From sequence record MZ501080: a stretch of 47,149 nt of DNA; one strand, given 5' to 3'. Shown piece after piece: positions 1-44,299 of the stretch. Source of the stretch: Escherichia phage JeanPiccard. Below the pieces are notes generated by a model. That model saw only the letters and a program-made list of their open reading frames with translations. It was not told the DNA's origin and ran no database searches. The number at the start of each line of letters is the position of its first letter. Position 1 is the first letter of the stretch. The translations under genes and the position numbers were made by a program.

Positions 1-507
1 ATGAGCAAAGCAGCATTAAAGATGGGTGAGGGAAATTTCAAGGCACTCTACAACAAGAAGTATGGCGATATTGCTATGGTGGCAATCAACCGTAAGTATA
101 CGCCTGAGGAGGTTTTCGATTTCGCAGTGAGATACTTCTCCTGGGCTGAGGGTGAGGCAATTAAAGCCATTGAGACGGCGGCATTCCGGGGTGTGGTTAG
201 TGAGAGCTTAGTGCACAAGCCTAGAGTGTTCACATTAACCGGCCTGGCACTATTCATGGGTGTTAACATCAATAGATTCGCTCGTTGGCGTGCTGAGGCT
301 GGATACTCTGACGTGATGGAATTCATTGATAACGTAATCTACGAACAGAAATATCAGCTCTGCGTTGCAGGCATTATCAACTCCACCATTGTTGGTAAAG
401 AGCTTGGCATTGATAAGCCGCAGGAGATCACCATTAGCAACAACTCCACAGCCAACGACGTTGATAGCATGAAGGAAGCGCTTGAGTCTGTTATTGGTAA
501 GTTGTAG
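1..507 (+). CDS. terminase small subunit (may be 5'-truncated by window edge)
   Basis: ORF directly upstream of large terminase; HTH-like segment LTGLALFMGVNINRFARW; position in packaging module. Confidence 0.6.
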   Translation: MSKAALKMGEGNFKALYNKKYGDIAMVAINRKYTPEEVFDFAVRYFSWAEGEAIKAIETAAFRGVVSESLVHKPRVFTLTGLALFMGVNINRFARWRAEAGYSDVMEFIDNVIYEQKYQLCVAGIINSTIVGKELGIDKPQEITISNNSTANDVDSMKEALESVIGKL

Positions 508-522
508 CACTTATTGTTAAAA
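505..522 (+). promoter_or_regulatory. dyad motif TAGCACttatTGTTAAAA (family copy a); TAG is the terS stop codon
   Basis: member of repeated TAGCAC-N5-TTG(C/T)TAAA family; followed about 22 nt later by TGaGATAAT -10-like element. Confidence 0.4.
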
Positions 523-575
523 GAAGAGCCCCAATCAGTGAGATAATGGTCCCAATAAACTAACGAGGTGATGAT

Positions 576-1052
576 ATGGATTGGGGTGATTTTTTCTATT
601 TAAGCAGCGAATCTCCTAGTGGTCTAAAATGGAAAGTTGACAAAGGGAGGGTAAGGGCTGGCGATAACGCTATAACGGCAATTGGTAATGGCTATTACAA
701 GGGCAGGTTAAACCAGGTGACTGTTTATGCCCACAGGGTAGTTTATTTTCTTGCGTACGGAGTAAAGCCAGAGGTAATAGATCACATTGATGGTGATGGC
801 CTTAATAACTCAATAGACAATCTTCGAGACGGAACAACAAGGCAGAATATGCAAAACAGAGCGTGTAAGGGCTACAGCTACAACAAAAGGGATGACGTTT
901 ATTACGCGCAGATAACAAAGAATGGGGTGACTAGACATATTGGGTCTTTCTCCACAAAGGAATCAGCCATAGCTGCATACCTAAGAGAGAAGTCTTTAGT
1001 TCATGAGTTTTATAATGAGGAAAGAGATATATGCTCATCTGGGAAGAAATGA
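576..1052 (+). CDS. HNH homing endonuclease with AP2-like DNA-binding domain
   Basis: HIDGDGLNNSIDNLR HNH motif; C-terminal AP2-like segment; inserted between terS and terL; paralog at 13303..13779. Confidence 0.8.
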   Translation: MDWGDFFYLSSESPSGLKWKVDKGRVRAGDNAITAIGNGYYKGRLNQVTVYAHRVVYFLAYGVKPEVIDHIDGDGLNNSIDNLRDGTTRQNMQNRACKGYSYNKRDDVYYAQITKNGVTRHIGSFSTKESAIAAYLREKSLVHEFYNEERDICSSGKK

Positions 1053-2593
1053 CAAGTCAGGAGAAGCTAGCCGTTAAGGCCATCTCAGAGCATAGTTTTG
1101 AGGGCTTTTTAAGGTGTTGGTTTTCAATAACGCAAGGAGAGCGATACATCCCCAATTGGCATCACAAGTACTTGTGCAGAATTATCGACGAGATTATTGC
1201 CGGAGAGCGGAAAGACACCATCATTAACATAGCTCCGGGTAGCGGAAAGACAGAAATTACATCAATCCACTTCCCGGTTTACTCGATGCTAAAGCTAAAG
1301 AAGGTTCGCAACCTGAACATCTCGTTCGCCGACTCAAACGTGAAGCGAAACTCAAAGCGCGTCCGTGACTTGATATCATCAAAGGAGTTCCAGGAGCTAT
1401 GGCCTTGCAAGTTCGGGACAAATAAAGATGACGAGATTCAGATCGTTGATGACAATGGAAAGGTTAGATTCGAGTCCATATCAGCATCAAAAGGAGGTAG
1501 GATTACTGGCACGCGTGGTGGGTATATTACCGACACATACAGTGGCGCGGTAATGCTGGATGACTTCGATAAACCCGACGAGATGTTTTCATCTGTATAC
1601 AGAGCCAAGAGTCACACGCTGCTTGGTAATACCATTCGTTCGCGTCGAGCAAGCTCGGTAAAGGGGAAGGCAACTCCAATTATCCAGATTCAGCAGAGAC
1701 TTCACGTCAATGACTCAACATGGTTCATGCTTAGCGGCGGCATGGGGATTGATTTTGATTTGGTTAAGATACCAGCACTGGTTACTGAAGATTACGCCGA
1801 TACATTACCTGACTGGATTAAGCAGCAATTTATTGATGATGTATTATCAAGCGAATATGTTGAGCGTGATGGGGTGAGGTATTATAGCTACTTTCCAGGA
1901 AAGGAGTCTGTGCATGACCTGGTTGCGATGTGGGATAGTGACCCGTACACGTTCCTTAGCCAGTATCAACAGGAACCCGTAGCGCTCGGCGGCAATCTGA
2001 TTAACGTGGACTGGTTCCAGCGAATCAGTGATACATTCAGACCTCCAGCTAAGTACGATTACCGATTCATCACATGCGATACTGCAATGACTACAAAGAG
2101 TTATAGTGACTTCTCTGTACTTCAGCTGTGGGGCTATAAGGATGCTAAGATTTACCTGATAGACCAGCGTAGAGGTAAGTGGGAGGCACCAGAGTTGGAG
2201 GCTGAGCTTCTGGATTTTGAGAAGAAATCAAGGGCAACCAGTCAGACGGATGGCATCCTTCGAAAGATTATCATCGAGAAGAAAGCCTCTGGCATAGGCT
2301 TGATTCAATCGGCGGGTAGAGTTATGCGAACACCGATAGAGCCATACGTACCGGATAACGACAAGCTTACTCGCGTAATGAGCGCATTACCACAGATTAA
2401 GACTGGTAACGTCGTTCTTCCAGAGTCAGCGACATGGCTAAATGGATTGCTTACTGAGGTTGCGGCTTTTACCGCAGACGACTCACATAAGCACGATGAC
2501 CAAATTGACTGTCTAACAATGGCAGTAAACCTTGTTCTCAATATCGCAGATGATCCTAAGTCCAGATTAATGCGCATAGCGGGAATTAAATAG
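1049..2593 (+). CDS. terminase large subunit
   Basis: about 515 aa; Walker A-like PGSGKTE; C-terminal nuclease-like region; ATGA overlap with upstream stop, GGGAAG RBS (alternative ATG at 1031). Confidence 0.9.
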   Translation: MTSQEKLAVKAISEHSFEGFLRCWFSITQGERYIPNWHHKYLCRIIDEIIAGERKDTIINIAPGSGKTEITSIHFPVYSMLKLKKVRNLNISFADSNVKRNSKRVRDLISSKEFQELWPCKFGTNKDDEIQIVDDNGKVRFESISASKGGRITGTRGGYITDTYSGAVMLDDFDKPDEMFSSVYRAKSHTLLGNTIRSRRASSVKGKATPIIQIQQRLHVNDSTWFMLSGGMGIDFDLVKIPALVTEDYADTLPDWIKQQFIDDVLSSEYVERDGVRYYSYFPGKESVHDLVAMWDSDPYTFLSQYQQEPVALGGNLINVDWFQRISDTFRPPAKYDYRFITCDTAMTTKSYSDFSVLQLWGYKDAKIYLIDQRRGKWEAPELEAELLDFEKKSRATSQTDGILRKIIIEKKASGIGLIQSAGRVMRTPIEPYVPDNDKLTRVMSALPQIKTGNVVLPESATWLNGLLTEVAAFTADDSHKHDDQIDCLTMAVNLVLNIADDPKSRLMRIAGIK

Positions 2594-2605
2594 CCGTGAT
2601 AAACT

Positions 2606-2628
2606 AGCCCCTACATGGGGCTTTTTTA
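2606..2628 (+). terminator. rho-independent terminator
   Basis: hairpin AGCCCCtacaTGGGGCT followed by T6. Confidence 0.6.
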
Positions 2629-2640
2629 TTGGAGAAAAAC

Positions 2641-9216: not shown

Positions 9217-9221
9217 TTGCA

Positions 9222-9239
9222 TAGCACTTTTTGATAAAG
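9222..9239 (+). promoter_or_regulatory. dyad motif TAGCACttttTGATAAAG (family copy b)
   Basis: motif family member; followed by TATAGTTAACTCATCTAAACGAA leader. Confidence 0.4.
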
Positions 9240-9297
9240 CGTTAATTCAATCTTCCTGTATAGTTAACTCATCTAAACGAAATGAGAGATTAAAGAA

Positions 9298-10255: not shown

Positions 10256-13231
10256 ATGGCAACAAATGAATTAGCCGGAATCACGCTAGCCGTAGACGTA
10301 TCGCAGGTAGATAGGGGAACGCAATCCCTACAGAAGTTCAGGCAGGCTAACCAACAGGCCGCTTCCGGGATTAGTGAATTCATAAACGCTGAGCAGGTTG
10401 CTAAAAACCAGGCGAGAGATACAGCTCGCGCACTTGCTGAGCAACAGGCATCACTGGCTAAGCTGCAAACTGCGATTGATCCAACTGCGGCAAAGTTCCG
10501 TAAGCTGCAAGAGGCGGCCGTAGGTCTTGATAAGGCGTTCGCTGCTGGCGTAGTTCCTGATGAGGAATTTTTCCGATTAGGTGAGGCTCTTGAAACGCAG
10601 AATGCAAAACTTGCGCGTTCACGCGCAGCTTTAACCGAGGAGGGGAGGGCGGCGGCTCAAGCGGCAAAGGAGAAAGCGGCAGCAAAAGCAGCAGCGGATA
10701 GATTTATCGCATCACTTGAGCGACAAGCTCAAGCTGCGACGCTGACTCGTGAGGAGTACTTAAAGCTACAGGCTGCACAGCTTGGTGTTAGTTCTCAGGC
10801 TGCGCCTATTATTGACAGAATCGCTGAGGCTTCAGAGCGAGCAAATGTTCAATTAGCAAACCAAAGCAAGGCTTTTCAGAAGTCCGGGCTAAGTGCCGGG
10901 CAATACAAGAACGCCATTAGCCAACTGCCAGCACAGATTACAGATATTGGAACATCACTTGCTGGTGGCATTCCGATTTGGCTTATTGCAATTCAGCAGG
11001 GCGGACAAATTAAGGATGCATTCGGAGGTATTGGTAACACATTTAGATTCGCGCTGGCTGCACTAAACCATTTTAATGTTGCTGTTGGCGTTTTGGGAGG
11101 CGCACTCGTCGCTCTCGGTATTGGCGCGGCTCAGGCTGAAAGTGAATTCAGGGCATTGAACTCTGCCATTGCATTCTCAAACAACTCGACAATCACTTCA
11201 ATCTCGCAAATTAGACAGTTGGTTAGCTCTGTTTCTGACGCTACCGGCGCCACCAGAGGACTGGTAACCAGCATCGCAACAAGCCTTGTTGAGCAAGGAA
11301 ACCTTACGCTAACGCAGATTGATAAGATTACTAAATCAACAGCAAGATGGGCGCAGTTGACAGGTAAGGATGCAAAGGAGATTACTGGTTACTACAACCA
11401 GATTGCAAGCGACCCAATCCAGGGTTTAGTTGACTTGGATAAGCGCTTTAACTTCCTCACACAGGGGCAGCTGACGACAATCGAAAACCTGAGAAAGACA
11501 AAGGGGGAGGTCGAGGCCGTTACCGCCGCGATTGATATTTTCAGCAAGTCGCAGGAAGCCAACCTTAACGACATTGCAGCTCAATTAACTCCACTTGAGT
11601 TAGCATGGAATGACTTCAAGAAGTACATCTCTGATGTCTGGGATGCAATTAGCCGTAGAACACTAGGTGCTTTAAACCTGTTTGTTGACGTAATAGCAGG
11701 AACAATTGAGCAAATCAGGGTCTTCCTTAACCAGGGTGACGTTCTGATTGGTGAATTCGTAATCAGCGCAACTCAGGCATTGCAGAACATACCTGGCCTT
11801 GATGGTGTTGGTGATGATGTTATCAAGGGGCAGCAGAAGATTATCGATGCCGCCAAGAAGCAAAACCTTGAGCTAGAGAAGTCCATCAGGGAGCGAGATG
11901 CCAGAATCAGAGAGGGAGAGCTTGGTTACGTTAATCGCAGAGAGAATCAGAATACCAATGAGCAATCAGGGACCGATGAGGAATTCGCAAAAAGGAAGAA
12001 GGCACTTCAGGATGAGCTTGACGCGATCAAGAAAAACAGGAAAGAGGAAAATGGGAGGGTTAATGAGCAAAGGGATTTAACAATAGGTTATGAATCTGGC
12101 GTTCTGGCACTTCAGGCTCAACTCAAGGTTCTTCAGGAAAATCGGGATATTGGCGCAGTAATAAGCAATGAGCGCAAGCAGTATCTTCAGGAGGAGGCTA
12201 AATTCAGGATCCTTGAGCAGAGGCAGCTTGATGGCTCGATTACCAAAGAGCAAGCGAGACTTATCGTTGAAAAGGACAAAGTTCTTGAGTTGGCCAAGCA
12301 GAAGGCTGAACTAGGTGATCAGATTGTTTTGCAGGAGCGCGCCAATAAGTTAGCTGAAGATAACCGCAAGAAGATTCTTCAGATTAACAATGAGGCAAAT
12401 AACATTGATTTAGGCGCTGGATTGTCATCTCGAGAGCAGCAGAGAGCCAAAGAGATTCAGGCCCTCCAGTCCAATCAGGTTAATGCTGGTGGCGCACTTG
12501 ATGACGTGGATTTTCAGCAACTCCTCGAAGCAAGACGCAACTTTTACGCTCAGGAGGATGCGCTACGTGAAAACTGGCTCGCTGGCGTGAATCAATCCTT
12601 TGCCAATTGGGCTGAGAGCGCTAAGGATGCATTCTCAATTGCTGGAAGTTTAACCACAACAGTCTTTGAGGGCATTACCGACCAGATTACAAACCTTGTA
12701 ACAACTGGCGAGACAAACTTCAGGGAGTTTACTGTAAGCATCCTTAAGCAGATTGCTAAGATTGCGGCTCAGCTTCTTGTTGTCAAGGCAATTGAGTCTA
12801 GCTTAAGTAGCTTCGGTGGCACTGGTGGCGCTATTGGTTCAATTGCCTCAGCTATAGGTTTTGCTGGTGGCGGCTACACTGGTGATGGCGGGAAGTATCA
12901 GCCAGCAGGAACCGTACACCGCGGTGAGTTTGTATTCACAAAAGAAGCAACAAGCCGAATTGGTGTTAAGAACCTTTACGCGCTAATGAAGGGATACGCA
13001 AACGGTGGCGCTGTAGGTGGTCCATCTGGTTATGCTAATGGCGGTTTGGTTTCTGGTGGGTCAGATGTTAATGTTAGTGGCATCACCGTTAACGTTAATG
13101 GTGGCGTTGGTAGCGACCCAGAACAGGCCAAGGCATTGCAGAGTGGCGTTAAGGCTATCGTTGCGGAAGAAATTGCTCAGTCTTTCCAGCAGGGTGGAAA
13201 AGCGTATGCCTACCTGAGGGGCTTTAACTAA
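10256..13231 (+). CDS. tail tape measure protein
   Basis: 991 aa, Ala/Gln/Glu-rich coiled-coil composition, Gly-rich C-terminus; located after G/GT chaperones. Confidence 0.9.
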
Positions 13232-13249
13232 TAGCACTAAATGGTAAAG
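13232..13249 (+). promoter_or_regulatory. degenerate dyad motif TAGCACtaaaTGGTAAAG (family copy c)
   Basis: motif family member with one half-site altered; followed by TATAAT. Confidence 0.3.
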
Positions 13250-13302
13250 CCAAAAGGATTTGGCTTGCTATAATCAACTCATTAAAACTGTGAGGTGATA
13301 AA

Positions 13303-20895: not shown

Positions 20896-20960
20896 TTTTA
20901 AGTCCTTATTAAGTTTTCTCGTTTCGATGTGGTAATGATAACTCATCCCTGCGGATTGTC

Positions 20961-20978
20961 TTTAGCAATTCGTGCTAT
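20961..20978 (-). promoter_or_regulatory. dyad motif (minus orientation, copy d) overlapping methyltransferase stop codon
   Basis: TTTAGCAATTCGTGCTAT is the reverse complement of ATAGCACGAATTGCTAAA. Confidence 0.4.
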
Positions 20979-21651
20979 TTGCAATGAAAACCGCCCTTGC
21001 GAATCCTCTCGGTGTAAGACTGCGGACTACCTTCGTTTTCTTACTCTTACCGCCTAGCTTCTTGTATTGGTCTGAGAATCCGTCATTAACAGGCACGGGA
21101 ATAGCATCAGGCCATTTAAACCCATTGCCAGACCAAATACATGTCTTCTTAGGATATGCGTCGCGAGGCTTTATTAGGTCGCTAAAAAACGGGTGTAAAT
21201 CATCTTCCGGCAAATAGCCTCCGTATTCGTAAGGGTGGAAAGTGTTATCAGGCTTTCGCCAAAGTGATGAAAGTACGCTTATCGGGTTCTCAATCATGTA
21301 TGGCACTTGGTACTTATTAGCCAGGTTAAAGGCAACTTTACACGCTTCAGCAGCTTCAATTTGGAAATTGGGGTTAGCAAGGCGCTTGCGCTCAAAGTGT
21401 CTTGACCCGCTCACCGCTAAATCCGTACAGGGCGGGAATGCCAAAATGAAATCAGGCTTCACATTAAAATCGAAGTCAGCATCTATCCATGCGTTAACAT
21501 AGGTGATGTTGTGATGCTCAACCTTTGCATTTAAGTCACCGTAGCTCCCATGGTCAGAATCATCAAAGTTGAAACAGTAGCAAGTGTGACCAGCTTCAGC
21601 CCAATCTTTCACCGCAAGACCAGAGCCATCAAATAAAGACCAGATAACCAT
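20962..21651 (-). CDS. DNA C5-cytosine methyltransferase (short Dcm-like)
   Basis: motif I-like LFDGSG, PC motif FPPCTDLAVSG, ENV-like MIENPIS. Confidence 0.65.
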   Translation of the reverse strand: MVIWSLFDGSGLAVKDWAEAGHTCYCFNFDDSDHGSYGDLNAKVEHHNITYVNAWIDADFDFNVKPDFILAFPPCTDLAVSGSRHFERKRLANPNFQIEAAEACKVAFNLANKYQVPYMIENPISVLSSLWRKPDNTFHPYEYGGYLPEDDLHPFFSDLIKPRDAYPKKTCIWSGNGFKWPDAIPVPVNDGFSDQYKKLGGKSKKTKVVRSLTPRGFARAVFIANSTNC

Positions 21652-22034
21652 TTTACAATCCTCTCTCGTTGTTTGTGCGACTAACTATACCAGGTTTTGC
21701 GTCTGAGTTTTAGCTATTCGTGCTATTGCATACACGTAACAGATGTAACTTGATGTATACAATCTAATCCGCGGAAAATGATATACGCCAAGTTACGCAT
21801 GGTTACGCTATATTTACATTAAAATATCTATATATATCAACCATTTACTCTTATTATTATTATTATATATATTACTGTGTATATCATGTAACTACCTCTA
21901 TAGAGTGTTCCGGTTGCAATTTTAATATCATGTGGATTTATACAGTGTTGCACGGTGCTATACCAATGCACCCTCAGCAATAAATGATATACACGATATA
22001 CACACTAGTTACATTGAGCTATAGCTGATCTGAG
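21652..22034. promoter_or_regulatory. AT-rich divergent control region 1 (iteron-like repeats; candidate early promoters or origin)
   Basis: no ORFs; (ATT)n tract, GATATACAC tandem repeat, GTAAC/GTTAC and GTATAC repeats, TACACGTAAC; about 75 bp homologous to 40887..40960. Confidence 0.45.
21708..21726 (-). promoter_or_regulatory. dyad motif (minus orientation, copy e) upstream of methyltransferase gene
   Basis: TTTAGCTATTCGTGCTAT; followed on minus strand by TATAGT and leader before ATG 21651. Confidence 0.4.
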
Positions 22035-24010: not shown

Positions 24011-24011
24011 A

Positions 24012-24029
24012 TAGCACTTTTTGTTAAAA
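24012..24029 (+). promoter_or_regulatory. dyad motif TAGCACttttTGTTAAAA (family copy f)
   Basis: directly after dam stop; followed by TATAGTTAAAG. Confidence 0.4.
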
Positions 24030-24086
24030 CGAAATTAATGTTTTTCGTTATAGTTAAAGAACACAAGAAAACAATGGGGGTTAGTC

Positions 24087-28073: not shown

Positions 28074-28097
28074 TGTGTAAAGTCTCCATTTGTAAAA

Positions 28098-28115
28098 TAG
28101 CACGATTTGCTAAAG
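28098..28115 (+). promoter_or_regulatory. dyad motif TAGCACgattTGCTAAAG (family copy g)
   Basis: located between tail fiber start and primase terminator, plus orientation. Confidence 0.3.
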
Positions 28116-28138
28116 TTGATTGTAGCATCTTTAGGGCA

Positions 28139-29142: not shown

Positions 29143-29616
29143 TTACTCTTTAGCTTTTCGTGCTGCTTCGTTGGCGGCCTTGATCTTGCGCCATGATCGA
29201 CACTCTGGCTTGGTGGCTAATTCAGCCTCAGTAACAACGCGCAGCATGTGACGTTTTTTGCATCGTAGTGTAAGCGGTTTTCCGTTACCGTCGAATTGCA
29301 GGTCCGGTCGACAGAATGTAGCGCGAAAACCTTCCCCAGTTCGTTTGTAGTAGTTATGCGACAGTTGAGCGCCACGTGCAGAAATCATACCACGCTTAAA
29401 CCATTCTTCCACGGCCTGAGGAGTTACCTTTAGCTGCTTTGCGATATTCGCCTTTGTGCCGAAGAAATCAAGTAGCATCTCAAGCCGCGCACGTAGCCCT
29501 GCCCTTACTTCATCTTTTAAAACGTAGTAGCCTGAAGGTCGTTTGCGCTTCTTTTTGTCTTCAGTGCGGACGGTTCCGTTATTCCCGTTAATGGTTCGCT
29601 TGTCTACTGCATTCAT
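29143..29616 (-). CDS. HTH DNA-binding protein (putative transcriptional regulator)
   Basis: helix-turn-helix-like segment ANIAKQLKVTPQAVEEWFKRG; basic termini. Confidence 0.55.
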   Translation of the reverse strand: MNAVDKRTINGNNGTVRTEDKKKRKRPSGYYVLKDEVRAGLRARLEMLLDFFGTKANIAKQLKVTPQAVEEWFKRGMISARGAQLSHNYYKRTGEGFRATFCRPDLQFDGNGKPLTLRCKKRHMLRVVTEAELATKPECRSWRKIKAANEAARKAKE

Positions 29617-29629
29617 TTCATCACCTCAA

Positions 29630-29648
29630 TAGCATTTTTTGTTAAAAG
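29630..29648 (+). promoter_or_regulatory. dyad motif TAGCATttttTGTTAAAAG (family copy h) in divergent intergenic region
   Basis: one mismatch from family consensus; upstream of helicase gene. Confidence 0.35.
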
Positions 29649-31713: not shown

Positions 31714-32133
31714 ATGAAAATTACAGATAAGGTTGATTACATTGAGTTTTACCCAGGCCCTGTTAATTCATGCCCTAAAGAGGATGACGAACAAATCTTT
31801 TGCTCTGATTGGGTTAAGTATAACTATCCAGACATGGTGTTTTTCCACTGCGTGAATGAGGGTAAGAAAACAATTGGACAAGCAAGAAAAGACCAGGCTA
31901 AGGGTTTATTGAAGGGCGTATCTGACTGCATGTTTCTGATACCTGAATCTATCCGAGGCAAATACCCTTTCGGAGCCATAGAGCTAAAGAGGGCAGGAAA
32001 AACACAGGCAAGCCCAGTCAGTGACGAACAGAAGTCCTTCCTGAAAAGCGTAAGAGAATCAGGCGGCTTCGCGGCTGTAGCCTATGGTCGCGAGGGTTTT
32101 CTGGCAGCATTCAAAGAAATGATTTCAAAATAG
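31714..32133 (+). CDS. VRR-NUC domain nuclease
   Basis: 139 aa; segment GAIELKRAGKTQASPVSDEQKSFLKSV typical of VRR-NUC proteins; coupled to helicase. Confidence 0.6.
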   Translation: MKITDKVDYIEFYPGPVNSCPKEDDEQIFCSDWVKYNYPDMVFFHCVNEGKKTIGQARKDQAKGLLKGVSDCMFLIPESIRGKYPFGAIELKRAGKTQASPVSDEQKSFLKSVRESGGFAAVAYGREGFLAAFKEMISK

Positions 32134-32148
32134 CACGAATTGCTAAAG
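32131..32148 (+). promoter_or_regulatory. dyad motif TAGCACGAATTGCTAAAG (family copy i); TAG is the VRR-NUC stop
   Basis: exact 17-mer TAGCACGAATTGCTAAA shared with copies j, p, q. Confidence 0.45.
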
Positions 32149-32211
32149 GTATTTCGCAGGGATGCGATATAGTTACCCCATCGAAACGAAACACTAAAAG
32201 AGAGAAACAAA

Positions 32212-32415: not shown

Positions 32416-32453
32416 GAGTGGTAGTTGTAAACTGGAAAACTGGAGAGGATTCA
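32347..32453 (+). repeat. 107-bp direct repeat, copy 1
   Basis: differs at 3 positions from 32658..32764. Confidence 0.85.
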
Positions 32454-32459
32454 AAATAG
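32412..32459 (+). pseudogene. truncated 5' remnant (15 codons) of small ORF duplicated at 32723..32881
   Basis: MRVVVVNWKTGEDS then premature TAG supplied by the dyad motif. Confidence 0.5.
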
Positions 32460-32474
32460 CACGAATTGCTAAAC
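32457..32474 (+). promoter_or_regulatory. dyad motif TAGCACGAATTGCTAAAC (family copy j)
   Basis: sits exactly at the junction where the duplicated segment ends. Confidence 0.45.
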
Positions 32475-32531
32475 TATGACGCATGGAAGCGTGTATTATC
32501 AACTCATCGAAAAGAAACTAGGAGAGAAAAA

Positions 32532-33102: not shown

Positions 33103-33284
33103 TTGGCATCTGCGTAAAAACGAATGGGCAATTTACACTACTCGAGGATTACGAAATCAACTCTCATTCAGATGAGGTAACAGTGTTTAGCGATGATGGA
33201 TGCTATTGGTTCCTTAGTTATCAAGGTGATGGCTACTACGGATGCATTGATTCAAACGGAAAAGAAGTTAGTTTCTTAGTCTAA
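33099..33284 (+). CDS. hypothetical protein
   Basis: 61 aa from ATG 33099 (GGAGG RBS). Confidence 0.45.
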   Translation: MIGICVKTNGQFTLLEDYEINSHSDEVTVFSDDGCYWFLSYQGDGYYGCIDSNGKEVSFLV

Positions 33285-33303
33285 TAGCACTTTTTGTTAA
33301 AAC
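33285..33303 (+). promoter_or_regulatory. dyad motif TAGCACttttTGTTAAAAC (family copy k)
   Basis: immediately after stop codon of upstream gene. Confidence 0.4.
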
Positions 33304-33359
33304 TAAAATCCACGGATGGATTATATTAAGCACATAAACAACGCAGAGGATTTTGAATA

Positions 33360-34067: not shown

Positions 34068-35198
34068 ATGGCAACCGCAAAAATCACCAACGAACAATTG
34101 CGCGAAGAGTTAGCAAATGGCATGACCAACAAGGCAATCGCAGAGAAGTACGGAATGAACATTCGCAACGTTGAATTGCGTCGCAGTAAATTAGCTAAAC
34201 AAGGCGAAGGGCATGGTCGCGATGTAAGCAACTTAATCCCTCAGGGCTATGCAGTTAAAGGCGTCTCCAGCTTAATTGGTGCTGATGGCGAGATTAAGCA
34301 ACAGTGGGTTAAATCAGATATCGACAAGGAGAAGCAAGAAGAGATGATGCTTCAGGCAATTCAGGCCCTAACTGATGAGTTGCCGCGTGAGAAAGCTAAA
34401 GCTTTAAGGGTTGGTTTATGGGAAGATACTTTAAGCCTTTACCCCGTGTTCGACCTCCACATTGGAGCAATGGCTCATCATGCTGAGTGTGGTGAGAACT
34501 ATAGTACTGAAATCGCTGAGAGAGTTCTTAATGATTACTTTGATTACGCGGTTGCAAAGGCCCCCAACTCCAAGAAAGCTGTATTGCTGATTGGGGGTGA
34601 CTTCCTTCACTCTGACGGAATGGAAGCGGTAACACCAACCAGTCGTCATGTTCTTGATCAAGATAGCCGTTATCACAAACTTGTTTACGTAGCAGTGCGA
34701 GCGACACGTCGAGCAATTAGCCGTATGCTTGATAAGCACGCCGAGGTTGAGGTTCAGATTATTCCAGGTAACCACGATCTCTCAGGTATGATTTGGCTTC
34801 GTGCTGCAATGGCAGCTTTCTATATGGATGAGCCTCGAGTTAATGTTGATGCGTCCCCCGCTGCGCTTCACGTAACGCAATTTGGGAAGACGCTGCTTGG
34901 TTACTGCCATGGGCACGAACTCAAAAAGCCTGATACCCGACTATCAGCACTGGCTCGTGACCATCGCAAAGCATTTGGTGAATCAGAGTATGTTTACACC
35001 CATTCAGGCCACTATCACCATCAAACTATTACGGAAGGAAATCTGGGTATTGATGAATCACACGGCCAGCTTGGAGCGAAAGATGCGTACAGTGCTAACG
35101 GAGGTTATCGCTCTTACCGACAGGCTTCGGTGATAATTTATAGTCCTGAGTTTGGTGAGATTGGACGATTTACTTGCCGCCCGGAAATGTTTAGTTAA
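34068..35198 (+). CDS. calcineurin-like metallophosphoesterase with N-terminal HTH-like domain
   Basis: phosphoesterase motifs GDFLHSD and GNHD plus His-rich C-terminal HSGHYHH; N-terminal GMTNKAIAEKYGMNIRNV resembles an HTH. Confidence 0.65.
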   Translation: MATAKITNEQLREELANGMTNKAIAEKYGMNIRNVELRRSKLAKQGEGHGRDVSNLIPQGYAVKGVSSLIGADGEIKQQWVKSDIDKEKQEEMMLQAIQALTDELPREKAKALRVGLWEDTLSLYPVFDLHIGAMAHHAECGENYSTEIAERVLNDYFDYAVAKAPNSKKAVLLIGGDFLHSDGMEAVTPTSRHVLDQDSRYHKLVYVAVRATRRAISRMLDKHAEVEVQIIPGNHDLSGMIWLRAAMAAFYMDEPRVNVDASPAALHVTQFGKTLLGYCHGHELKKPDTRLSALARDHRKAFGESEYVYTHSGHYHHQTITEGNLGIDESHGQLGAKDAYSANGGYRSYRQASVIIYSPEFGEIGRFTCRPEMFS

Positions 35199-35216
35199 TA
35201 GCACTTTTTGCCTAAC
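35199..35216 (+). promoter_or_regulatory. degenerate dyad motif TAGCACttttTGCCTAAC (family copy l)
   Basis: directly after stop of phosphoesterase gene; followed by ATAATTACCACATCGAAACGAA leader. Confidence 0.3.
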
Positions 35217-35282
35217 GCATGCCGTAGAAATGCGGCATAATTACCACATCGAAACGAAATGAACTAAACGAGGAAACACAAA

Positions 35283-38593: not shown

Positions 38594-38667
38594 TACTTCT
38601 CTCCGTATTGTTTTTGAGAGGCCATTATATCAACGACCTCTTATAAAGCATTATCAATTTGTGCTAT

Positions 38668-39376: not shown

Positions 39377-39416
39377 TTTTCGTACCCCTCCCGTTTCGAT
39401 GAGATTAATATACAGG

Positions 39417-39435
39417 AAAAGCCCCTAAGGGCTTT
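39417..39435 (-). terminator. terminator hairpin (minus-strand operon)
   Basis: hairpin AAAGCCCttaGGGGCTTT with flanking T/A runs. Confidence 0.45.
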
Positions 39436-39450
39436 AGCAATTCGTGCTAT
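39433..39450 (-). promoter_or_regulatory. dyad motif (minus orientation, copy n)
   Basis: TTTAGCAATTCGTGCTAT is the reverse complement of ATAGCACGAATTGCTAAA. Confidence 0.4.
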
Positions 39451-40004: not shown

Positions 40005-40014
40005 ATCTCAATCC

Positions 40015-40523: not shown

Positions 40524-41230
40524 TTATTTCTCCTTTCCTCTCGTTTCTAGGACTGAATCATAGCAACCAACCACTGATAGGTCATTAGCAAAAAGTGCTA
40601 TTCGTTAGATTTATGGATTGTTGCAGATATTGAAATTATTATCATGATTATTGCACATATAGCAATATTGCTTCAGATGCAATGATGTTTTTGATTGTTG
40701 CGGATTGAGCAATGAAGTGGTGGGGGAGTGAATGAAAGATGGATGGACTAACATACAAGTTGATTTTGACTCCCGATAACCTATCCTGTGGTATACACGT
40801 AACCGCCGTATACTCAGTGTCGTCACAAAAGTTAGTGGACACTAACCTACGTTTTTTACGCCAATATACACTCGATATACAATATAATATCTATATATAT
40901 CAACCTTTTACTTTATTATTATTATTATTATTATATATATGTATACCGTGTATACCGGTCATGGATGGAATAGTTGATATGTTCCGCGCAGATATTCTGA
41001 CACTTGTCAGAAAGGGATGACATTGTAGGAATAAAAAGGCACATATATAGGAAATATCCTCAAAAATCTGTACACAGTGGATACGGCAGGTTTACAACCA
41101 GTGCCGGAGCGGGCTTGAGAGGCAAAATGCGTATCCATGATAAAATATACTAAAATATACATTGACCGACACGTAAATAGGTGGCAATATAGCAATCACT
41201 GAAACGAAGTAAACCAAACGAGGTATTAAC
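40524..41230. promoter_or_regulatory. AT-rich divergent control region 2 (homologous to region 1)
   Basis: no credible ORFs; shares ATATCTATATATATCAACC(A/T)TTTACT(C/T)TTATTATTATT core, TACACGTAAC and GTATAC repeats with 21652..22034. Confidence 0.45.
40585..40601 (-). promoter_or_regulatory. dyad motif (minus orientation, copy o)
   Basis: TTAGCAAAAAGTGCTAT is the reverse complement of ATAGCACTTTTTGCTAA. Confidence 0.35.
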
Positions 41231-41779
41231 ATGCAGAAAGTAACACTAGGTGAAGTTATCCGCGAGATGGTTCGTAACGCGATGGCGTCTGATGGTGGTG
41301 AATTCAAAGTTCCGGTTAGCCAGATATTCAAGCTGGTTCGCGGGAAAGAATACCCTGAGATGCGGTATGATGAGGATACCAGTGAGATCCTAAACCTTGC
41401 AGATAGGGCGATGCCGGAACTAAAGAACTCATACATTTATAATACGGTTTCGAGAATGACCGAGCTTCGAGATGCAAACAAGCGAGCGCGCTATAAGTTC
41501 ATCTGGATTGATGAGGATGGCGAGCAGGTAAGCCCTGGTAGCTTCGATGGTGATGGCGCCGATAAATACCTGGTAATATACATTGAGGACGGCGCGCACT
41601 GGACTGGAAGTCGCGAGAAGAAAAAGCAGGAATCGGAGAGGGAGGCAGCAACCATTGAAAGGTTTAAATCTCGATTGCTCAAGCTGTCACCTAGCGTCGC
41701 TGGGCTGGAAGGTGATGAACTTAAGGGTGCTGTTGCAATGATTAATGCTTATCAGGAAATGATTAAGGAAACCAAATAA
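41231..41779 (+). CDS. hypothetical protein
   Basis: 182 aa; ACGAGG RBS; first gene of plus-strand operon leaving control region 2. Confidence 0.5.
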   Translation: MQKVTLGEVIREMVRNAMASDGGEFKVPVSQIFKLVRGKEYPEMRYDEDTSEILNLADRAMPELKNSYIYNTVSRMTELRDANKRARYKFIWIDEDGEQVSPGSFDGDGADKYLVIYIEDGAHWTGSREKKKQESEREAATIERFKSRLLKLSPSVAGLEGDELKGAVAMINAYQEMIKETK

Positions 41780-42306
41780 TGTTTGATTTCAACGAAGAAA
41801 AGCTGACAGATGAGCAGGTCATGAGTATTGCGAAGCAGGATGGGATTCCCCCGCTACGGGTTGCAATCAATGCAAACGGGTATCGTCATGTTCAACACCT
41901 CTGGAGTCATCCTGATGCGTCATCAATCCACAAGGGTGAGGCTGTTGAGGTTCTGCTGACAGCGATAAGGACTGAATCTATAGCTCGCAGGGGAGTTGTT
42001 GGCTTACAGAAGTCTTATGACCTAATTAGGAAGCTAAAGAGGTTTAAAGGTGACAATGACGGGCTAATGGAGAGGATTAAGGACGAAATGATTCCAGAGC
42101 TAGAGAAAGCGAATCTCGTTTGCCTCATTGGAGATAAGATTTATGTCCACCCGGCTATCATTGAGGAGTCCTGGCAACCCAACTTCAAAACTTACGAAGG
42201 TGATCACACTAGTAGACTACCATACCACTTGCGGTACAGTGAGGCGGAGGTGGAAGAGGCTATTGAGTTCTACCGGAAGACTAAATCACTCCTGAATGGC
42301 GAATAG
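41779..42306 (+). CDS. domain-deleted paralog of the P-loop ATPase (N- and C-terminal modules only)
   Basis: MFDFNEEKLTDEQVMSIA..PPLRVAINANGYR and CLIGDKIYVHP match the ends of 37010..38593; no Walker motifs. Confidence 0.55.
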   Translation: MFDFNEEKLTDEQVMSIAKQDGIPPLRVAINANGYRHVQHLWSHPDASSIHKGEAVEVLLTAIRTESIARRGVVGLQKSYDLIRKLKRFKGDNDGLMERIKDEMIPELEKANLVCLIGDKIYVHPAIIEESWQPNFKTYEGDHTSRLPYHLRYSEAEVEEAIEFYRKTKSLLNGE

Positions 42307-42321
42307 CACGAATTGCTAAAC
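42304..42321 (+). promoter_or_regulatory. dyad motif TAGCACGAATTGCTAAAC (family copy p); TAG is the stop codon
   Basis: exact consensus copy. Confidence 0.45.
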
Positions 42322-42376
42322 AATGGATCGGGTAGTCAGCTATGATTACCCTATCAACAACGAAGAGGAAATGAAG

Positions 42377-42586
42377 ATGGAAGCTGTAATTATCGAAGAT
42401 TTCGCAGGTGACAGCACGGAGGTGTCGACTTCAGTATATTACGACGGCATCGTGAGCATTGACATTGACCTGGATAACTTAGGCGATAGATACACGCTCG
42501 CCCACTATACACCAGAGGCGGCCCGCAAATTGGCGGCGGCATTAATCCTGGCGGCGGACGAGGCGGACGAGGTGGAGAAAAAATGA
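42377..42586 (+). CDS. hypothetical acidic protein (start uncertain)
   Basis: GAGGAA RBS before ATG 42377; track ORF starts at 42323. Confidence 0.4.
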   Translation: MEAVIIEDFAGDSTEVSTSVYYDGIVSIDIDLDNLGDRYTLAHYTPEAARKLAAALILAADEADEVEKK

Positions 42587-42846
42587 AACGTTTAATGACA
42601 TGCATGACCATTATTGCGGCAATTATTGCTCTTACTGGTTGCGAGAAAGCACCGGAGGTTCAGATTCAGTCAGGTGAATTCAATGTGGAGCGTCTATTCA
42701 CAGTGGATGGATGTACCGCCTACCGATTCCGAGATAGCGGTAAAGCCGTCTACTACACAAATTGCCATGGCAGTACGCAGAGTGAGTACAAGTCCGGCAA
42801 GGTCACGAAACAAGAAATAGTTCAGACAAATCGCACGAATTGGTAA
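42583..42846 (+). CDS. lipoprotein
   Basis: signal peptide MKRLMTCMTIIAAIIALTG followed by Cys (lipobox LTGC); 87 aa. Confidence 0.55.
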   Translation: MKRLMTCMTIIAAIIALTGCEKAPEVQIQSGEFNVERLFTVDGCTAYRFRDSGKAVYYTNCHGSTQSEYKSGKVTKQEIVQTNRTNW

Positions 42847-43028
42847 AAGGGGATTCATCCTGACTGGTATAATCCAACGCATCAACCAAATGAATGGAAG
42901 TTAAGTGACGATATACGAACATAAATTCAGTAGCAGGGGTATTGATATGCTCCTGCACTATGTAGACGAAAAATACGCAAAGCTAATGCTTAAGACGCAT
43001 GGCGGCACAATAACGAGGATTAACATAA

Positions 43029-43646: not shown

Positions 43647-43647
43647 A

Positions 43648-43665
43648 TAGCACGAATTGCTAAAC
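43648..43665 (+). promoter_or_regulatory. dyad motif TAGCACGAATTGCTAAAC (family copy q)
   Basis: exact consensus copy directly after kinase stop. Confidence 0.45.
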
Positions 43666-43719
43666 CAGCTCCGGCGGGTTCTGTTATAGTTAGTTCACAC
43701 CAAACGAGAGGAAAGATAA

Positions 43720-43911
43720 ATGATTACGATTAACCTATCAGAAGAAATGGCCGCTGACCTTATTGATTCACTAAGCCTGGTTAAAATTCGATATGGAACT
43801 TACCACATGAGCGAATCAGTAAAGGAAGTGGTAAAGCAAGTTAAGCAGCAGGTCGGAGCTACCAAAATCGAATTGCAGAACACCCCATACGATTTTAATA
43901 AAGGTGAATAA
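43720..43911 (+). CDS. hypothetical protein (MITINLS paralog 1)
   Basis: 63 aa; N-terminus MITINLSEEMAADL. Confidence 0.45.
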   Translation: MITINLSEEMAADLIDSLSLVKIRYGTYHMSESVKEVVKQVKQQVGATKIELQNTPYDFNKGE

Positions 43912-43912
43912 G

Positions 43913-44140
43913 ATGATTACAATCAACCTGTCAGACAAGCAGGCGGCAGAACTCAAGTCCATGATGAACTCTTTCATGCCAACGCGCTGCGACGGTCAGC
44001 GTAATGTGGTAGATGAGGTTAGAGACCAAATCAACAATCAGCAATTCGACGTCAGTGACTTCGAGTCATCACGTCAGTACGAGGCGCTTAGCGTTAATGC
44101 TGCATACCTGGCTAACTGGGATAAGGCAACGAAGAAATGA
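43913..44140 (+). CDS. hypothetical protein (MITINLS paralog 2)
   Basis: 75 aa from ATG 43913 (AAAGGTG RBS); N-terminus MITINLSDKQAAEL. Confidence 0.45.
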   Translation: MITINLSDKQAAELKSMMNSFMPTRCDGQRNVVDEVRDQINNQQFDVSDFESSRQYEALSVNAAYLANWDKATKK

Positions 44141-44283
44141 TTTACATCCACACTTACTACACTGGCAAGTTCAATAGCGTTAAGCACGTTCGGGTTTATG
44201 AGGATTTTAAAGAAGCATTCAAGCAGCAGGAGGTTCTTGGTGGAGTTGTCCAGGAATGTGAAATTCTAGAAGAATACAAATAG
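44137..44283 (+). CDS. hypothetical small protein (48 aa)
   Basis: ATGA overlap with upstream stop; stop TAG supplied by dyad motif. Confidence 0.35.
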   Translation: MIYIHTYYTGKFNSVKHVRVYEDFKEAFKQQEVLGGVVQECEILEEYK

Positions 44284-44299
44284 CACTAATTGTTAAAAC
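44281..44299 (+). promoter_or_regulatory. dyad motif TAGCACtaatTGTTAAAAC (family copy r)
   Basis: followed by hairpin TGGGGTAA..TTACCCCA enclosing TGATATAGT and CATCGAAACGAA leader. Confidence 0.4.

Follow-up and report, generated by a model that had tools for sequence, protein, structure and literature searches.

The window analysed here is a stretch of 47,149 nucleotides from Escherichia phage JeanPiccard (record MZ501080), a T1-like phage (Drexlerviridae), and carries 20 strong copies of a 20-bp motif plus one weaker promoter-type copy (29147-29166, minus strand), compared to about 0.03 expected by chance. When the whole window was searched with ATAGCACGAATTGCTAAA allowing up to three mismatches, 13 matches were found against 0.03 expected, and a position matrix gave 20 sites above 20 bits, while the top scores in 20 shuffled sequences were about 15–16 bits, with one at 20.3. 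The motif family described in an earlier note on this DNA is thus real and far above chance, with several details revised. The spacing in the note's title, TAGCAC-N5-TTGYTAAA, has zero matches, the true element being TAGCAC-N3-TTGnTAAA; the half-sites TAGCA-N5-TGCTA were correctly spaced. Where about 17 copies had been counted, four of them exact and four on the minus strand, we found 20 strong and one weaker, including six exact 18-mers (20961(-), 32130, 32456, 39433(-), 42303 and 43647) and five strong minus-strand copies (20961, 21709, 38650, 39433 and 40584), and the family does not end at 44299, as a further copy lies at 45209-45228. The copies are listed below; each is a marbox-type 20-mer (see below), TGn denotes an extended -10, and ATG the downstream start codon.

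504..523, plus strand: GTAGCACTTATTGTTAAAAG; -10 GATAAT 542-547 (TGn); candidate promoter of the HNH gene starting at 576; the motif-plus-HNH unit is absent in T145P1 (break at 500/501)
9221..9240, plus: -10 TATAGT 9259-9264; ATG 9298; preceded by a terminator hairpin
13231..13250, plus: -10 TATAAT 13269-13274 (TGn); hairpin in spacer; candidate promoter of the HNH gene at 13303; the motif-plus-HNH unit (13233-13781) is absent in Rtp and T145P1
20959..20978, minus: exact 18-mer; -10 TATCAT 20935-20940; candidate promoter of a lipoprotein gene (ATG 20895; Pfam Phage_lipoprotein match from residue 18)
21707..21726, minus: -10 TATAGT 21684-21689 (gap 17, TGn); candidate promoter of gene 21651..20962
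24011..24030, plus: -10 TATAGT 24049-24054; ATG 24087; break against T145P1 at 24038, within the spacer
28097..28116, plus: orphan with no usable -10; both flanking genes on the minus strand, in opposite orientation; on that strand 4 nt downstream of TGcTACAAT and 24 nt upstream of the tail-fibre ATG
29147..29166, minus: weaker copy GCAGCACGAAAAGCTAAAGA, within the 3' end of the HTH-regulator gene; -10 CATAAT 29123-29128, in the loop of terminator hairpin 29136-29113; candidate promoter of the primase gene (ATG 29084)
29629..29648, plus: -10 TATTAT 29666-29671 (gap 17, TGn); candidate promoter of the helicase gene (ATG 29718)
32130..32149, plus: exact 18-mer; -10 TATAGT 32168-32173; ATG 32212; follows the VRR-NUC ORF
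32456..32475, plus: exact 18-mer; -10 TATTAT 32494-32499; ATG 32532; unit is a tandem duplicate of the 32130 unit
33284..33303, plus: -10 TATATT 33322-33327; ATG 33360
35198..35217, plus: -10 CATAAT 35236-35241, partly within a hairpin; ATG 35283
38648..38667, minus: -10 TATAAT 38624-38629 (TGn), flanked by an inverted repeat; ATG 38593
39431..39450, minus: exact 18-mer; -10 TATATT 39407-39412; terminator-like hairpin in spacer; ATG 39376
40582..40601, minus: -10 TATGAT 40557-40562 (gap 19, TGn); ATG 40523
42303..42322, plus: exact 18-mer; -10 TATGAT 42341-42346, flanked by GGGTA/TACCC; ATG at about 42371-42377
42830..42849, plus: ATCGCACGAATTGGTAAAAG; -10 TATAAT 42868-42873 (TGn)
43647..43666, plus: exact 18-mer; -10 TATAGT 43685-43690 (TGn); ATG 43720
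44280..44299, plus: -10 TATAGT 44318-44323, flanked by GGGGTAA/TTACCCC; ATG 44354
45209..45228, plus: -10 TATAAT 45247-45252; ATG 45283

Placement and family conservation

Most motif-bearing cassettes start where the preceding gene ends, at its stop codon. The motif's own TAG was confirmed from the ORF ends as the stop of ORFs 1..507, 31714..32133 (VRR-NUC), 41779..42306 and 44137..44283, the stop at the minus-strand copies 20961 and 39433 is the TAA within the motif's ...CTAAA, and the motif closes two of the three reading frames. The -10 box and conserved leader noticed earlier were borne out for 19 of the 20 strong copies as well as the weaker one: a TATAnT-like hexamer starts 17–19 nt past the 20-mer in 20/21 copies, at 18 nt in 17 of these and at 17 or 19 nt in three. 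The "about 22 nt" given previously is the same distance counted from TTGCTA. Behind the -10 come a conserved leader (tA.c.CAtc.AAAc), a Shine-Dalgarno sequence and, 68–89 nt from the start of the motif, a start codon; every promoter-type copy is co-oriented with its downstream gene. The -35 position reads AAANNn, 10/21 copies have an extended -10 (TGn), and canonical -35/-10 pairs were not enriched in the window (41, compared to 37.4 in shuffles). In some cassettes, a terminator hairpin lies within the spacer or around the -10.

Both sequence and geometry of the motif are kept, identically, across eight Drexlerviridae genomes, one of them a Klebsiella phage, and the exact 18-mer is common to E. 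coli and Klebsiella phages with large terminases only about 52% identical. The listed hosts of motif-bearing phages (1,095 records) are all Enterobacterales, except for 21 records labelled Campylobacter. The reader of the motif thus appears to be conserved. The T1 site at 36444 lies just upstream of the annotated helicase gene (start 36525), T1 has an orphan equivalent to 28097 in the same place (34902, located with the T1 annotation), and Klebsiella phage KLPN3 (unannotated record) has a similar orphan at 12049, followed by a terminator. With the fixed distance of 18±1 nt to the -10, the conserved leader and the co-orientation found in the window and seven relatives, the suggested role as a promoter element is supported.

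The repeat itself has already been published: a 21-nt direct repeat, aaATAGCACnnnTTGnTAAAA, was described in phage TLS in 2024 and noted also in T1, Rtp and Rogue1. The authors found only three sigma-70-like promoters and did not settle on a function for the repeat, proposing a stoperator, an enhancer site or an UP element (PMC11447400). JeanPiccard carries this sequence with the A/T/G subgroups of its central triplet, its orientation and its distance of about 76 nt to the start codons all unchanged, and on this likeness is another member of the TLS-repeat family. The TLS paper related the repeat neither to the marbox nor to a fixed -10 distance.

The motif as a marbox

In sequence, the motif comes close to the consensus marbox, an asymmetric site at which the activators MarA, SoxS and Rob (RamA in Klebsiella) bind as monomers. 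The phage consensus meets all 13 positions specified by the marbox consensus AYNGCACNNWNNRYYAAAYN (PMC2064960) within the 18-mer and every position of gcannwwntgnnaaa (PMC12052159), and 14 of 15 positions are identical to the MarA ChIP-seq consensus gcactaattgctaaa (PMC5684230), the exact 15-mer of which occurs at T1 site 39976 and Klebsiella-phage site 34431. In a conservation profile of 108 distinct sites from seven genomes, 81 match gcannwwntgnnaaa perfectly, positions 9–10 are A or T in all 108, positions 8 and 14 are free, and position 3 is A in 104, with the A just upstream likewise conserved.

The same profile leaves the earlier idea of a dyad bound by a dimeric protein without support. 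G4 occurs in every site (108/108), but the position that mirrors it, 14, is free (C 67, T 24, A 12, G 5), and C7 and T11 are both conserved, yet non-complementary. This asymmetry makes binding of a dimer to a dyad unlikely, and the pattern of conserved and free positions is instead that of the marbox, the asymmetric site of monomeric MarA-type activators.

An independent matrix, built from 33 E. coli MarA ChIP-seq sites only, gave 22 matches of at least 14 bits in the window compared to 1.4 in shuffles. Among these are the weaker copy (16.9 bits) and 18 strong copies, the two remaining strong ones scoring 13.7 and 14.0 bits. The strong copies range from 13.7 to 19.8 bits, the top match being the 15-mer GCACTAATTGTTAAA in copy 44280..44299, while the median of the host sites is 13.1; the phage motif is more narrowly constrained than the host consensus, and its sites are far nearer to consensus than most host sites. 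Site density is 3.2–5.3 per 10 kb in the eight Drexlerviridae genomes and 0.3 in 31.5 kb of E. coli DNA. At about 20 per 47 kb, the phage sites have roughly 15 times the host density and lie in a virulent phage genome rather than a host chromosome.

The geometry is also that of known host promoters. In E. coli K-12 micF, inaA and nfo, read directly, the marbox is in forward orientation with 18 nt to the -10, as it is in fumC with 18–19 nt; 99 of 129 sites from seven phage genomes have 18 nt. Like the phage copies, these four host promoters have an asymmetric 20-bp site with GCAC and YAAA elements 7 bp apart, and E. coli class II marboxes share the forward orientation, the overlap of the -35 position, the 18–19 bp to the -10 and the lack of a good -35, with the inaA -10 (TATAGT) recurring in phage copies. 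The phage site would be centred at about -41, in agreement with RamA at micF, centred at about -41 (PMC8811837), and with the class II window of -36 to -55 (PMC12052159). The phage cassettes differ from host marbox promoters in their common leader, their frequent terminator hairpin and a dependence on MarA/SoxS/Rob that is only putative.

The fixed geometry bears on another explanation, in which polymerase alone uses these promoters through the -10 or extended -10 and A/T-rich, UP-like DNA, and the marboxes soak up Rob/MarA/SoxS or block read-through. The TGn in 10/21 copies, the presence in each genome of about 20 very strong sites, which surpass most host sites and would outnumber the activators after replication, the stoperator and UP-element readings of the TLS authors (PMC11447400), and the conserved orphan at 28097, placed where a bound protein would block rather than activate, all fit it. 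Neither a decoy nor a roadblock, however, needs a fixed distance or orientation, whereas the strict 18±1 nt and single orientation to the -10 in more than 100 sites are what class II activation requires. About half of the copies have neither a -35 nor TGn and would be weak promoters alone, and UP elements consist of A/T tracts rather than a GCAC...TGnTAAA pattern. We consider this explanation improbable.

Mosaic breaks and comparable phage elements

The motif was also proposed to be a recombination linker and hotspot, and the motif does mark module boundaries. Compared to five relatives, 39 of 147 breaks fall in cassettes, which make up 4% of the genome, and some insertions and duplications of a motif with its gene break exactly at motif copies. 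The copies at 21707-21726 and 20959-20978 lie on either side of an inserted gene; Rtp and T145P1 have just one copy at this place, with HSPs overlapping by 18–19 nt. The 32130 and 32456 units both map to one region in Rtp, and likewise in T145P1, and at 43647 the cassette alone (43640/43644-43723) aligns to these two phages, with unrelated genes on either side. The enrichment holds genome-wide but not against other gene junctions: after normalisation for length, motif junctions are hit no more often (44/103 observed, 38.5% expected, p=0.22), and a hotspot role of the motif itself is thus unsupported. That the motif serves mainly as a linker through which homologous recombination exchanges modules, without a specific part in transcription, is very improbable even though the phage encodes an Erf/exonuclease VIII-type recombination system, as a linker needs no fixed -10 distance, no orientation towards the downstream gene and no marbox pattern of fixed and free positions.

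The promoter-early stem-loop (PeSL) elements of T4-like phages and the lambdoid boundary sequences, to which the motif had been likened, are repeated intergenic elements that contain promoters and are found beside small, variable genes and at mosaic junctions, with hairpins associated with the promoter. The phage cassettes resemble them in all these respects, but their conserved part is a putative activator site upstream of a -10 rather than a -35/-10 pair with a stem-loop, their hairpins occur within the spacer or around the -10, and no hotspot effect beyond that of a gene junction was found here. In T4 middle promoters, a MotA box centred near -30 acts together with sigma appropriation by AsiA; as with the phage motif, a TGCT-containing activator box replaces the -35 and is combined with a normal -10. 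The phage motif, by contrast, would lie at -50 to -31, with TTGnTAAA at -40 to -33.

Candidate readers of the motif

Among the non-structural proteins of the window, Pfam returned no AraC-type domain and no MotA or AsiA homologue, and a phmmer search with MarA in all six frames, including the structural genes, found no MarA homologue (best E-value 3). The sole predicted phage regulator is a 157-aa protein (29143..29616, homologous to T1 gp23) with a single Cro-like HTH and a weak Pfam P22_Cro match below the cut-off; identity to its counterparts is 53% for T1 and 63% for the Klebsiella phage, and the recognition helix varies between the phages while the motif is unchanged.

The tightness of the motif could reflect either selection for the highest affinity or a reader of greater specificity. 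The HTH regulator, or an uncharacterised early protein, might read the motif and activate or repress these promoters, the marbox likeness then being convergence or mimicry of the same RNA polymerase position. A nearly invariant ATA at positions 1–3 and T11 would suit such a reader, as would the conservation of the HTH regulator across the phage family and the many small early proteins without known function, and a dedicated factor would account for efficient growth when host MarA and SoxS are scarce. We nevertheless regard it as unlikely: nothing in the window resembles a two-HTH MarA-type protein, the one predicted regulator has a helix that varies under an identical motif, and the conservation lacks the dyad symmetry of a dimer site. 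A chance fit to all marbox positions, the class II distance and the orientation is very unlikely; for just the 13 specified positions we estimate it at about 5e-7, with no correction for offsets, strands or the number of factors considered.

We therefore favour, with a probability of about 0.62, the reading in which host MarA, SoxS or Rob bind each copy to activate a class II sigma-70 promoter. One activator molecule (Rob, MarA or SoxS in E. coli, also RamA in Klebsiella) would bind each 20-mer at about -50 to -31, given a start about 7 nt after the -10, covering the place of the -35, with the GCAC end facing away from the -10 and the AAA end facing it. The bound activator would contact sigma region 4 and the alpha-CTD of RNA polymerase, as in the solved RamA, SoxS and Rob complexes, and set the polymerase on the TATAnT -10 18 bp downstream; about half of the copies also have an extended -10. 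Transcription would start at the conserved CA of the leader CATCGAAACGA, giving a short leader with a ribosome-binding site. As most cassettes begin at a stop codon and some carry a terminator hairpin, each would close one transcription unit and open the next, and promoter plus gene would form a self-contained unit open to insertion, duplication and swapping.

We infer host binding, activation and the transcription start positions from these sequence features; the searchable literature holds no experimental evidence of binding, activation or transcription starts for any T1-like phage. MarA and SoxS are present at low levels in unstressed cells, where most Rob is kept inactive (PMC5684230). T1-like phages nonetheless grow fast in ordinary medium, which speaks against a host activator. 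To our knowledge, classical selections for T1 resistance recovered receptor genes and not rob, marA or soxS, although redundancy among the three could mask an effect. An extended -10 can function with no activator, and as 10/21 copies have one, the marbox may only modulate expression. With the host activator as reader, some 20 phage genes would appear to be under the control of a host regulator of stress and antibiotic resistance.

The repeat and its putative promoter cassette

The earlier note had described a genome-wide family of a dyad motif, TAGCAC-N5-TTGYTAAA, at gene boundaries. The family itself was confirmed: ATAGCACGAATTGCTAAA occurs 13 times in the window with at most three mismatches (0.03 expected), and a position matrix returned 20 sites above 20 bits, compared to top scores of about 15–16 bits in 20 shuffled controls, one of which reached 20.3. 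A weaker additional copy is located at 29147-29166 on the minus strand. The N5 spacing was found to have no match in the window, the actual element being TAGCAC-N3-TTGnTAAA; exact 18-mers number six instead of four, and strong minus-strand copies five instead of four. The proposed sharing of stop codons was upheld, with the TAG of the motif terminating four ORFs and the TAA within ...CTAAA terminating two more on the minus strand, and two of the three reading frames are closed by the motif.

All aligned copies except one share a common layout. The 20-mer starts at or adjoins the stop codon of the preceding gene in most copies and is followed by an unconserved spacer, 18 nt in length (17 nt in two copies and 19 nt in one). 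Behind it, as had been noticed, lie a -10 and a leader: a TATAnT hexamer and then a conserved tA.c.CAtc.AAAc, succeeded by a Shine-Dalgarno sequence and a start codon 68–89 nt from the motif start (median about 75). All promoter-type copies are co-oriented with the following gene, and the -10 is of the extended type (TGn) in 10 of 21 copies, where about one would be expected by chance. The sequence at the true -35 position reads AAANNn. The TTGnTA of the motif stands 22 nt from the -10 and is thus unable to act as a normal -35; an ordinary -35 was further rejected as no -10-like hexamer is found 17 nt downstream of TTGCTA. The early and middle region showed no enrichment of canonical -35/-10 pairs (41, compared to 37.4 in shuffled sequence).

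The 2024 re-annotation of phage TLS reported a 21-nt direct repeat, aaATAGCACnnnTTGnTAAAA, in 21 copies that run co-directionally with transcription, precede start codons by about 76 nt, fall into A, T and G subgroups of the central triplet, and have similar counterparts in T1, Rtp and Rogue1 (PMC11447400). The motif of the window agrees with this repeat in consensus, copy number (about 18–21), co-directionality and distance (about 76 nt). For the family, then, the repeat had been described before; its role was left open by the TLS authors, who found only three sigma-70-like promoters and suggested a stoperator, an enhancer-binding site or an UP element (PMC11447400). In the literature searched, which did not include the T1 (2004) and Rtp (2006) genome papers, no link of a marbox, MarA, SoxS or Rob to T1-like phages and no mapping of transcription starts in these phages was found.

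The motif was also located in six relatives.

Motif sites in relatives of the window, all with the same geometry
T1: 23 sites
Rtp: 20 sites
T145P1: 19 sites
25988V: 18 sites
IME542: 16 sites
Klebsiella Webervirus KLPN3: 13 sites

The window is the genome of a T1-like siphovirus (Drexlerviridae). Within the phage collection it is closest to Veterinaerplatzvirus T145P1 (~92% identity in the segment tested), with Rtp at about 85% identity, and the large terminase of KLPN3 is only about 52% identical to that of the window. Across the collection, the motif is found at 4,414 places in 1,095 records, and the records with several copies are genomes of 44–52 kb. The host names of motif-bearing records are all from the Enterobacterales (Klebsiella, Escherichia, Salmonella, Shigella, Citrobacter, Enterobacter, Cronobacter and Pantoea), except for 21 records labelled Campylobacter.

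Comparison with marboxes and class II promoters of the host

We put a probability of roughly 60% on the copies being class II marbox promoters, i.e. promoters built on the binding site of the MarA family and read by host Rob, MarA or SoxS. The MarA/SoxS/Rob site has been given as AYNGCACNNWNNRYYAAAYN (PMC2064960), in an alternative form as gcannwwntgnnaaa (PMC12052159), and as the MarA ChIP-seq consensus gcactaattgctaaa (PMC5684230). The phage consensus agrees with these published consensuses at all positions that they specify within the 18-mer, and differs from the ChIP-seq 15-mer at a single position, which is free in the degenerate form; the exact 15-mer is present inside T1 site 39976 and Klebsiella-phage site 34431. 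Among 108 distinct sites from seven genomes, 81 match gcannwwntgnnaaa perfectly and 26 with one mismatch. GCAC, TG and AAA are nearly invariant, positions 9–10 are A or T in every site, and positions 8 and 14 are free.

An independent matrix, built solely from 33 E. coli MarA ChIP-seq sites and run over the window, gave 22 matches of at least 14 bits, compared to 1.4 in shuffles. Among them are the weaker copy and 18 of the 20 strong ones, the other two strong ones reaching 13.7 and 14.0 bits. The range for the strong phage copies is thus 13.7–19.8 bits, and the median of the host sites against their own matrix is 13.1. Match density amounts to 3.2–5.3 per 10 kb in eight Drexlerviridae genomes and to 0.3 per 10 kb in the 31.5 kb of E. 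coli chromosome scanned, a cut-off at which the latter figure excludes the genuine fumC, inaA and nfo sites since these score below 14 bits.

In class II promoters, a forward marbox overlaps the -35 and is centred between -36 and -55 (PMC12052159), and in the solved RamA complex on micF the activator sits at about -41 (PMC8811837). The phage site overlaps the -35 position with its centre at ~-41, if transcription is assumed to begin about 7 nt beyond the -10. For comparison, the sequences of four E. coli K-12 promoters were read directly.

Marbox promoters of E. coli K-12
micF: marbox ACAGCACTGAATGTCAAAAC, gap to -10 18 nt, -10 TAGAAT with the annotated RNA start 7 nt on
inaA: marbox ACGACACGTTTCATTAAGAT, gap to -10 18 nt, -10 TATAGT
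nfo: marbox ATCGCATAAACCACTACATC, gap to -10 18 nt, -10 TATCAT
fumC: marbox ATGGCACGAAAGACCAAACA, gap to -10 18–19 nt, -10 ATAATA or TAATAA

The 18-nt gap is found in 17 of the 21 window copies, with 17 or 19 nt in three more, and in 99 of 129 sites over seven genomes. The promoter-type copies are all forward marboxes, whose GCAC lies distal and whose AAA lies proximal to the -10, as is the case in micF, inaA, nfo and fumC.

The consensus does contain TAGCA-N5-TGCTA, the dyad from which binding by a dimeric protein had been proposed. Its half-sites are, however, not conserved symmetrically: G4 is present in 108 of 108 sites, yet its mirror, position 14, varies freely; at C7 and T11, both of them conserved, the bases are not complementary; and A1 has no mirror partner. 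Selection thus ignores the symmetry, which speaks against a dimer on the dyad, and the asymmetry argues for a monomer that would read the site with two different heads, as in MarA.

Other site types were considered and rejected. A sigma-54 promoter (TGGCAC-N5-TTGC, with GG and GC one helical turn apart) does not agree with the real N3 spacing, N5 giving 0 matches; moreover, AG is found where GG is needed, and a sigma-70-type -10 stands at a fixed distance instead. For a middle promoter of the T4 MotA-box type the box is wrongly positioned, and no MotA or AsiA homologue was found. Stoperators of the mycobacteriophage L5 type are asymmetric sites for a temperate phage's own immunity repressor; a Pfam search of the non-structural proteins gave no integrase and no CI-type immunity repressor domain, and the sites of the window stand at a fixed promoter distance from the -10. 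The consensus sites of IHF, CRP, FNR, LexA and Fur do not fit the motif.

Some observations count against host activators. The phage motif is tighter than the host consensus, and unstressed cells contain little MarA or SoxS, with Rob for the most part inactive (PMC5684230). Half of the copies, having an extended -10, may also fire unaided. Such firing would be in line with activator-independent promoters whose marboxes serve as a decoy or roadblock, which we regard as quite improbable beside the class II geometry of the copies.

Reading of the motif by a phage-encoded protein is likewise considered unlikely. A MarA-like protein of the phage was rejected, as Pfam on the non-structural proteins gave no MarA-family member and phmmer on six frames of the window with MarA (query checked against PDB entry 1BL0) gave a best E-value of 3. 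The sole regulator predicted among the non-structural proteins is a 157-aa protein (29143..29616) with a single weak Cro-like HTH, for which no relative with a solved structure was found and which PHROGs labels merely as 'transcriptional regulator'. This protein shares 53% identity with its T1 counterpart and 63% with that of the Klebsiella phage; the recognition helix is not the same in these phages, whereas the DNA motif is unchanged. MarA-family regulators are generally known from the enteric genera concerned (see also PMC5684230), and since the HTH regulator diverges while the motif stays constant, a reader that is highly conserved among enteric hosts appears to fit better than a diverging phage protein. 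Separately, the N-terminal stretch LANGMTNKAIAEKYGMNIRNVELRRSKL of an Mre11-like 'DNA repair exonuclease' (Pfam Metallophos, weak) resembles an HTH (window 34068-34200, plus strand); it matches no Pfam HTH family, and PHROGs gives only the exonuclease family.

Taken to the whole group, the reading would mean that most early and middle genes and mobile 'extra' genes of T1-like phages have promoters dependent on host MarA, SoxS, Rob or RamA, which we put forward tentatively and at somewhat less than even odds.

Hairpins, leaders and mosaic breaks

The region from the spacer to the -10 forms more stable folds than shuffled sequence does (mean z -1.6, 19 copies), and two kinds of hairpin were distinguished.

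Hairpins and inverted repeats
39413-39432: nested terminator hairpin
13251-13268: nested terminator hairpin
29113-29136 (-): nested terminator hairpin
44300-44335: inverted repeat at the -10 (example)
42323-42352: inverted repeat at the -10 (example)
38612-38647: inverted repeat at the -10 (example)
35218-35245: inverted repeat at the -10 (example)
T1 sites 1450, 3535, 4344, 4864 and 47616: inverted repeats at the -10

In the first kind, a stem rich in GC occupies the spacer or surrounds the -10, with the T-rich -10 region as terminator tail, and the annotated T1 terminators 38973-39001, 39998-40024 and 41980-42007 coincide with the spacers of sites 38953, 39976 and 41956. Such a stem can be understood as a terminator lodged within the promoter that follows, so that a single 90-nt cassette would end the upstream unit and start the next. 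In the second kind, an inverted repeat whose sequence differs from copy to copy (GGGGTA/TACCCC, GGCC/GGCC, GGGGA/TCCCC, GGGAGT/ACTCCC) flanks the -10 and thereby places it in a hairpin loop; most of these have no T run behind them and are thus not ordinary terminators. By permutation, such repeats are significant in T1 (p=0.0005) and weak or absent in other genomes, the same test giving p=0.19 in the window; they are treated here as a side observation, separate from the proposed mechanism.

The predicted transcript starts (7–20 nt after the -10; e.g. 32180-32192 and 44330-44342) carry the conserved sequence CATCGAAACGA and variants of it. Conservation of the leader spans copies and phages and exceeds the needs of a start site; it may have a role in translation or RNA processing. 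A tRNA was the sole Rfam family returned for the window, and the conserved leader thus corresponds to none of the described RNA families. The tRNA gene lies at 46078-46152 (+) among small early genes (RF00005, 55.5 bits), and for the relative CEB_EC3a a tRNA-Arg(tct) is annotated, also in the midst of small early genes.

One strong marbox, at 28097-28116 (+), lacks a -10 and is opposed in orientation to the genes on either side. It is situated just after the primase terminator; read on the minus strand, an extended -10, TGcTACAAT (28119-28127), precedes it by 4 nt, and the tail-fibre start codon (28073) follows it at 24 nt. A protein bound here would cover the start of the tail-fibre transcript, a repressing and not an activating position. 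The same arrangement is seen at T1 34902 (TGaTAAAAT, 3 nt, reverse marbox), and at 12049 of the Klebsiella phage, in an unannotated record, an orphan copy is followed by a terminator.

Comparison with relatives revealed differences located at the motif.

Mosaic features of the window
501-1039: unit of motif and HNH gene
13233-13781: unit of motif and HNH gene
20962-21651 (-): gene with a motif copy on each side
32130-32726: tandemly duplicated unit, marbox promoter and small gene
43644-43723: cassette aligning alone

The two HNH units are specific to the window and start at the motif, as compared to Rtp and T145P1; both genes are missing at these positions in T145P1 and the second also in Rtp, which has an HNH gene of its own behind terS. 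Both units resemble mobile elements made up of a gene and its promoter. The HNH endonuclease genes (576-1052 and 13303-13779) lie within the late structural operon, each with its own marbox promoter. A motif copy stands on either side of the gene at 20962..21651, where relatives have just one copy, and the alignments around this gene overlap by exactly the 18–19 nt of the motif. The product of the gene contains FDGSG and PPC motifs, typical of C5-cytosine DNA methyltransferases, and had no Pfam match at E<=0.01. The unit at 32130 is repeated at 32456, while relatives possess it only once; TKKYISRKTGYEYNLVLDD... / TAKFYESRKTGYQYELVITDD... is common to both products, whose C-termini are identical. 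The cassette at 43644-43723 aligns to Rtp and T145P1 with unrelated genes on both sides, and several insertions specific to relatives are located at the start-codon end of a cassette.

Breaks were counted between the window and five relatives, with genomes kept separate and each location counted once. Of 147 breaks, 39 fall inside cassettes, which make up 4% of the genome, and these concentrate at the 5' edge of the motif (15) and at the start codon (12). Motif junctions hold 44 of 103 junction breaks, more than the 26% predicted from the number of junctions (p=1e-4) but not significantly more than the 38.5% predicted from their length (p=0.22; five relatives). The suggestion that the motif is a recombination linker agrees with individual breaks and insertions, which lie exactly at motifs; a hotspot role of the motif itself is a possibility at most, and a pure recombination linker is highly improbable. 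In our reading of these alignments, the unit of exchange would be promoter plus gene.

Implications for T1-like phages

Ever since the sequencing of the T1 genome, it has been an open question how transcription is organised in T1-like phages. To our knowledge, these phages have no RNA polymerase or sigma factor of their own, and few ordinary promoters have been found. The class II marbox reading provides a concrete hypothesis for a repeat that was published without a function. The predicted promoter is a known kind of element; new are its setting and its unusual density and strength. The cassettes, as deduced from sequence, are compact and portable promoter-terminator units of possible use in engineering.

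If true, this would be an unusual case, as far as known, of a virulent phage with promoters built around a host stress regulator, and phage development would be coupled to the regulon for bile, oxidant and multidrug tolerance in enteric bacteria. Conditions or mutations that induce the regulon, such as gut bile salts, salicylate, or the marR and ramR mutations of clinical multidrug-resistant isolates, would then boost the phage. Drexlerviridae, especially the Klebsiella Webervirus group, are common phage-therapy candidates, and over-expression of MarA or RamA is a frequent route to multidrug resistance, so that resistant strains may prove to be the better hosts; there might also be joint action of some drugs or bile with the phage. 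As the phage DNA replicates, its very strong marboxes, then numbering in the hundreds to thousands, would in addition titrate the activators away from host promoters, and the conserved reverse marbox over the tail-fibre start could exploit this drain as an early-to-late timer.
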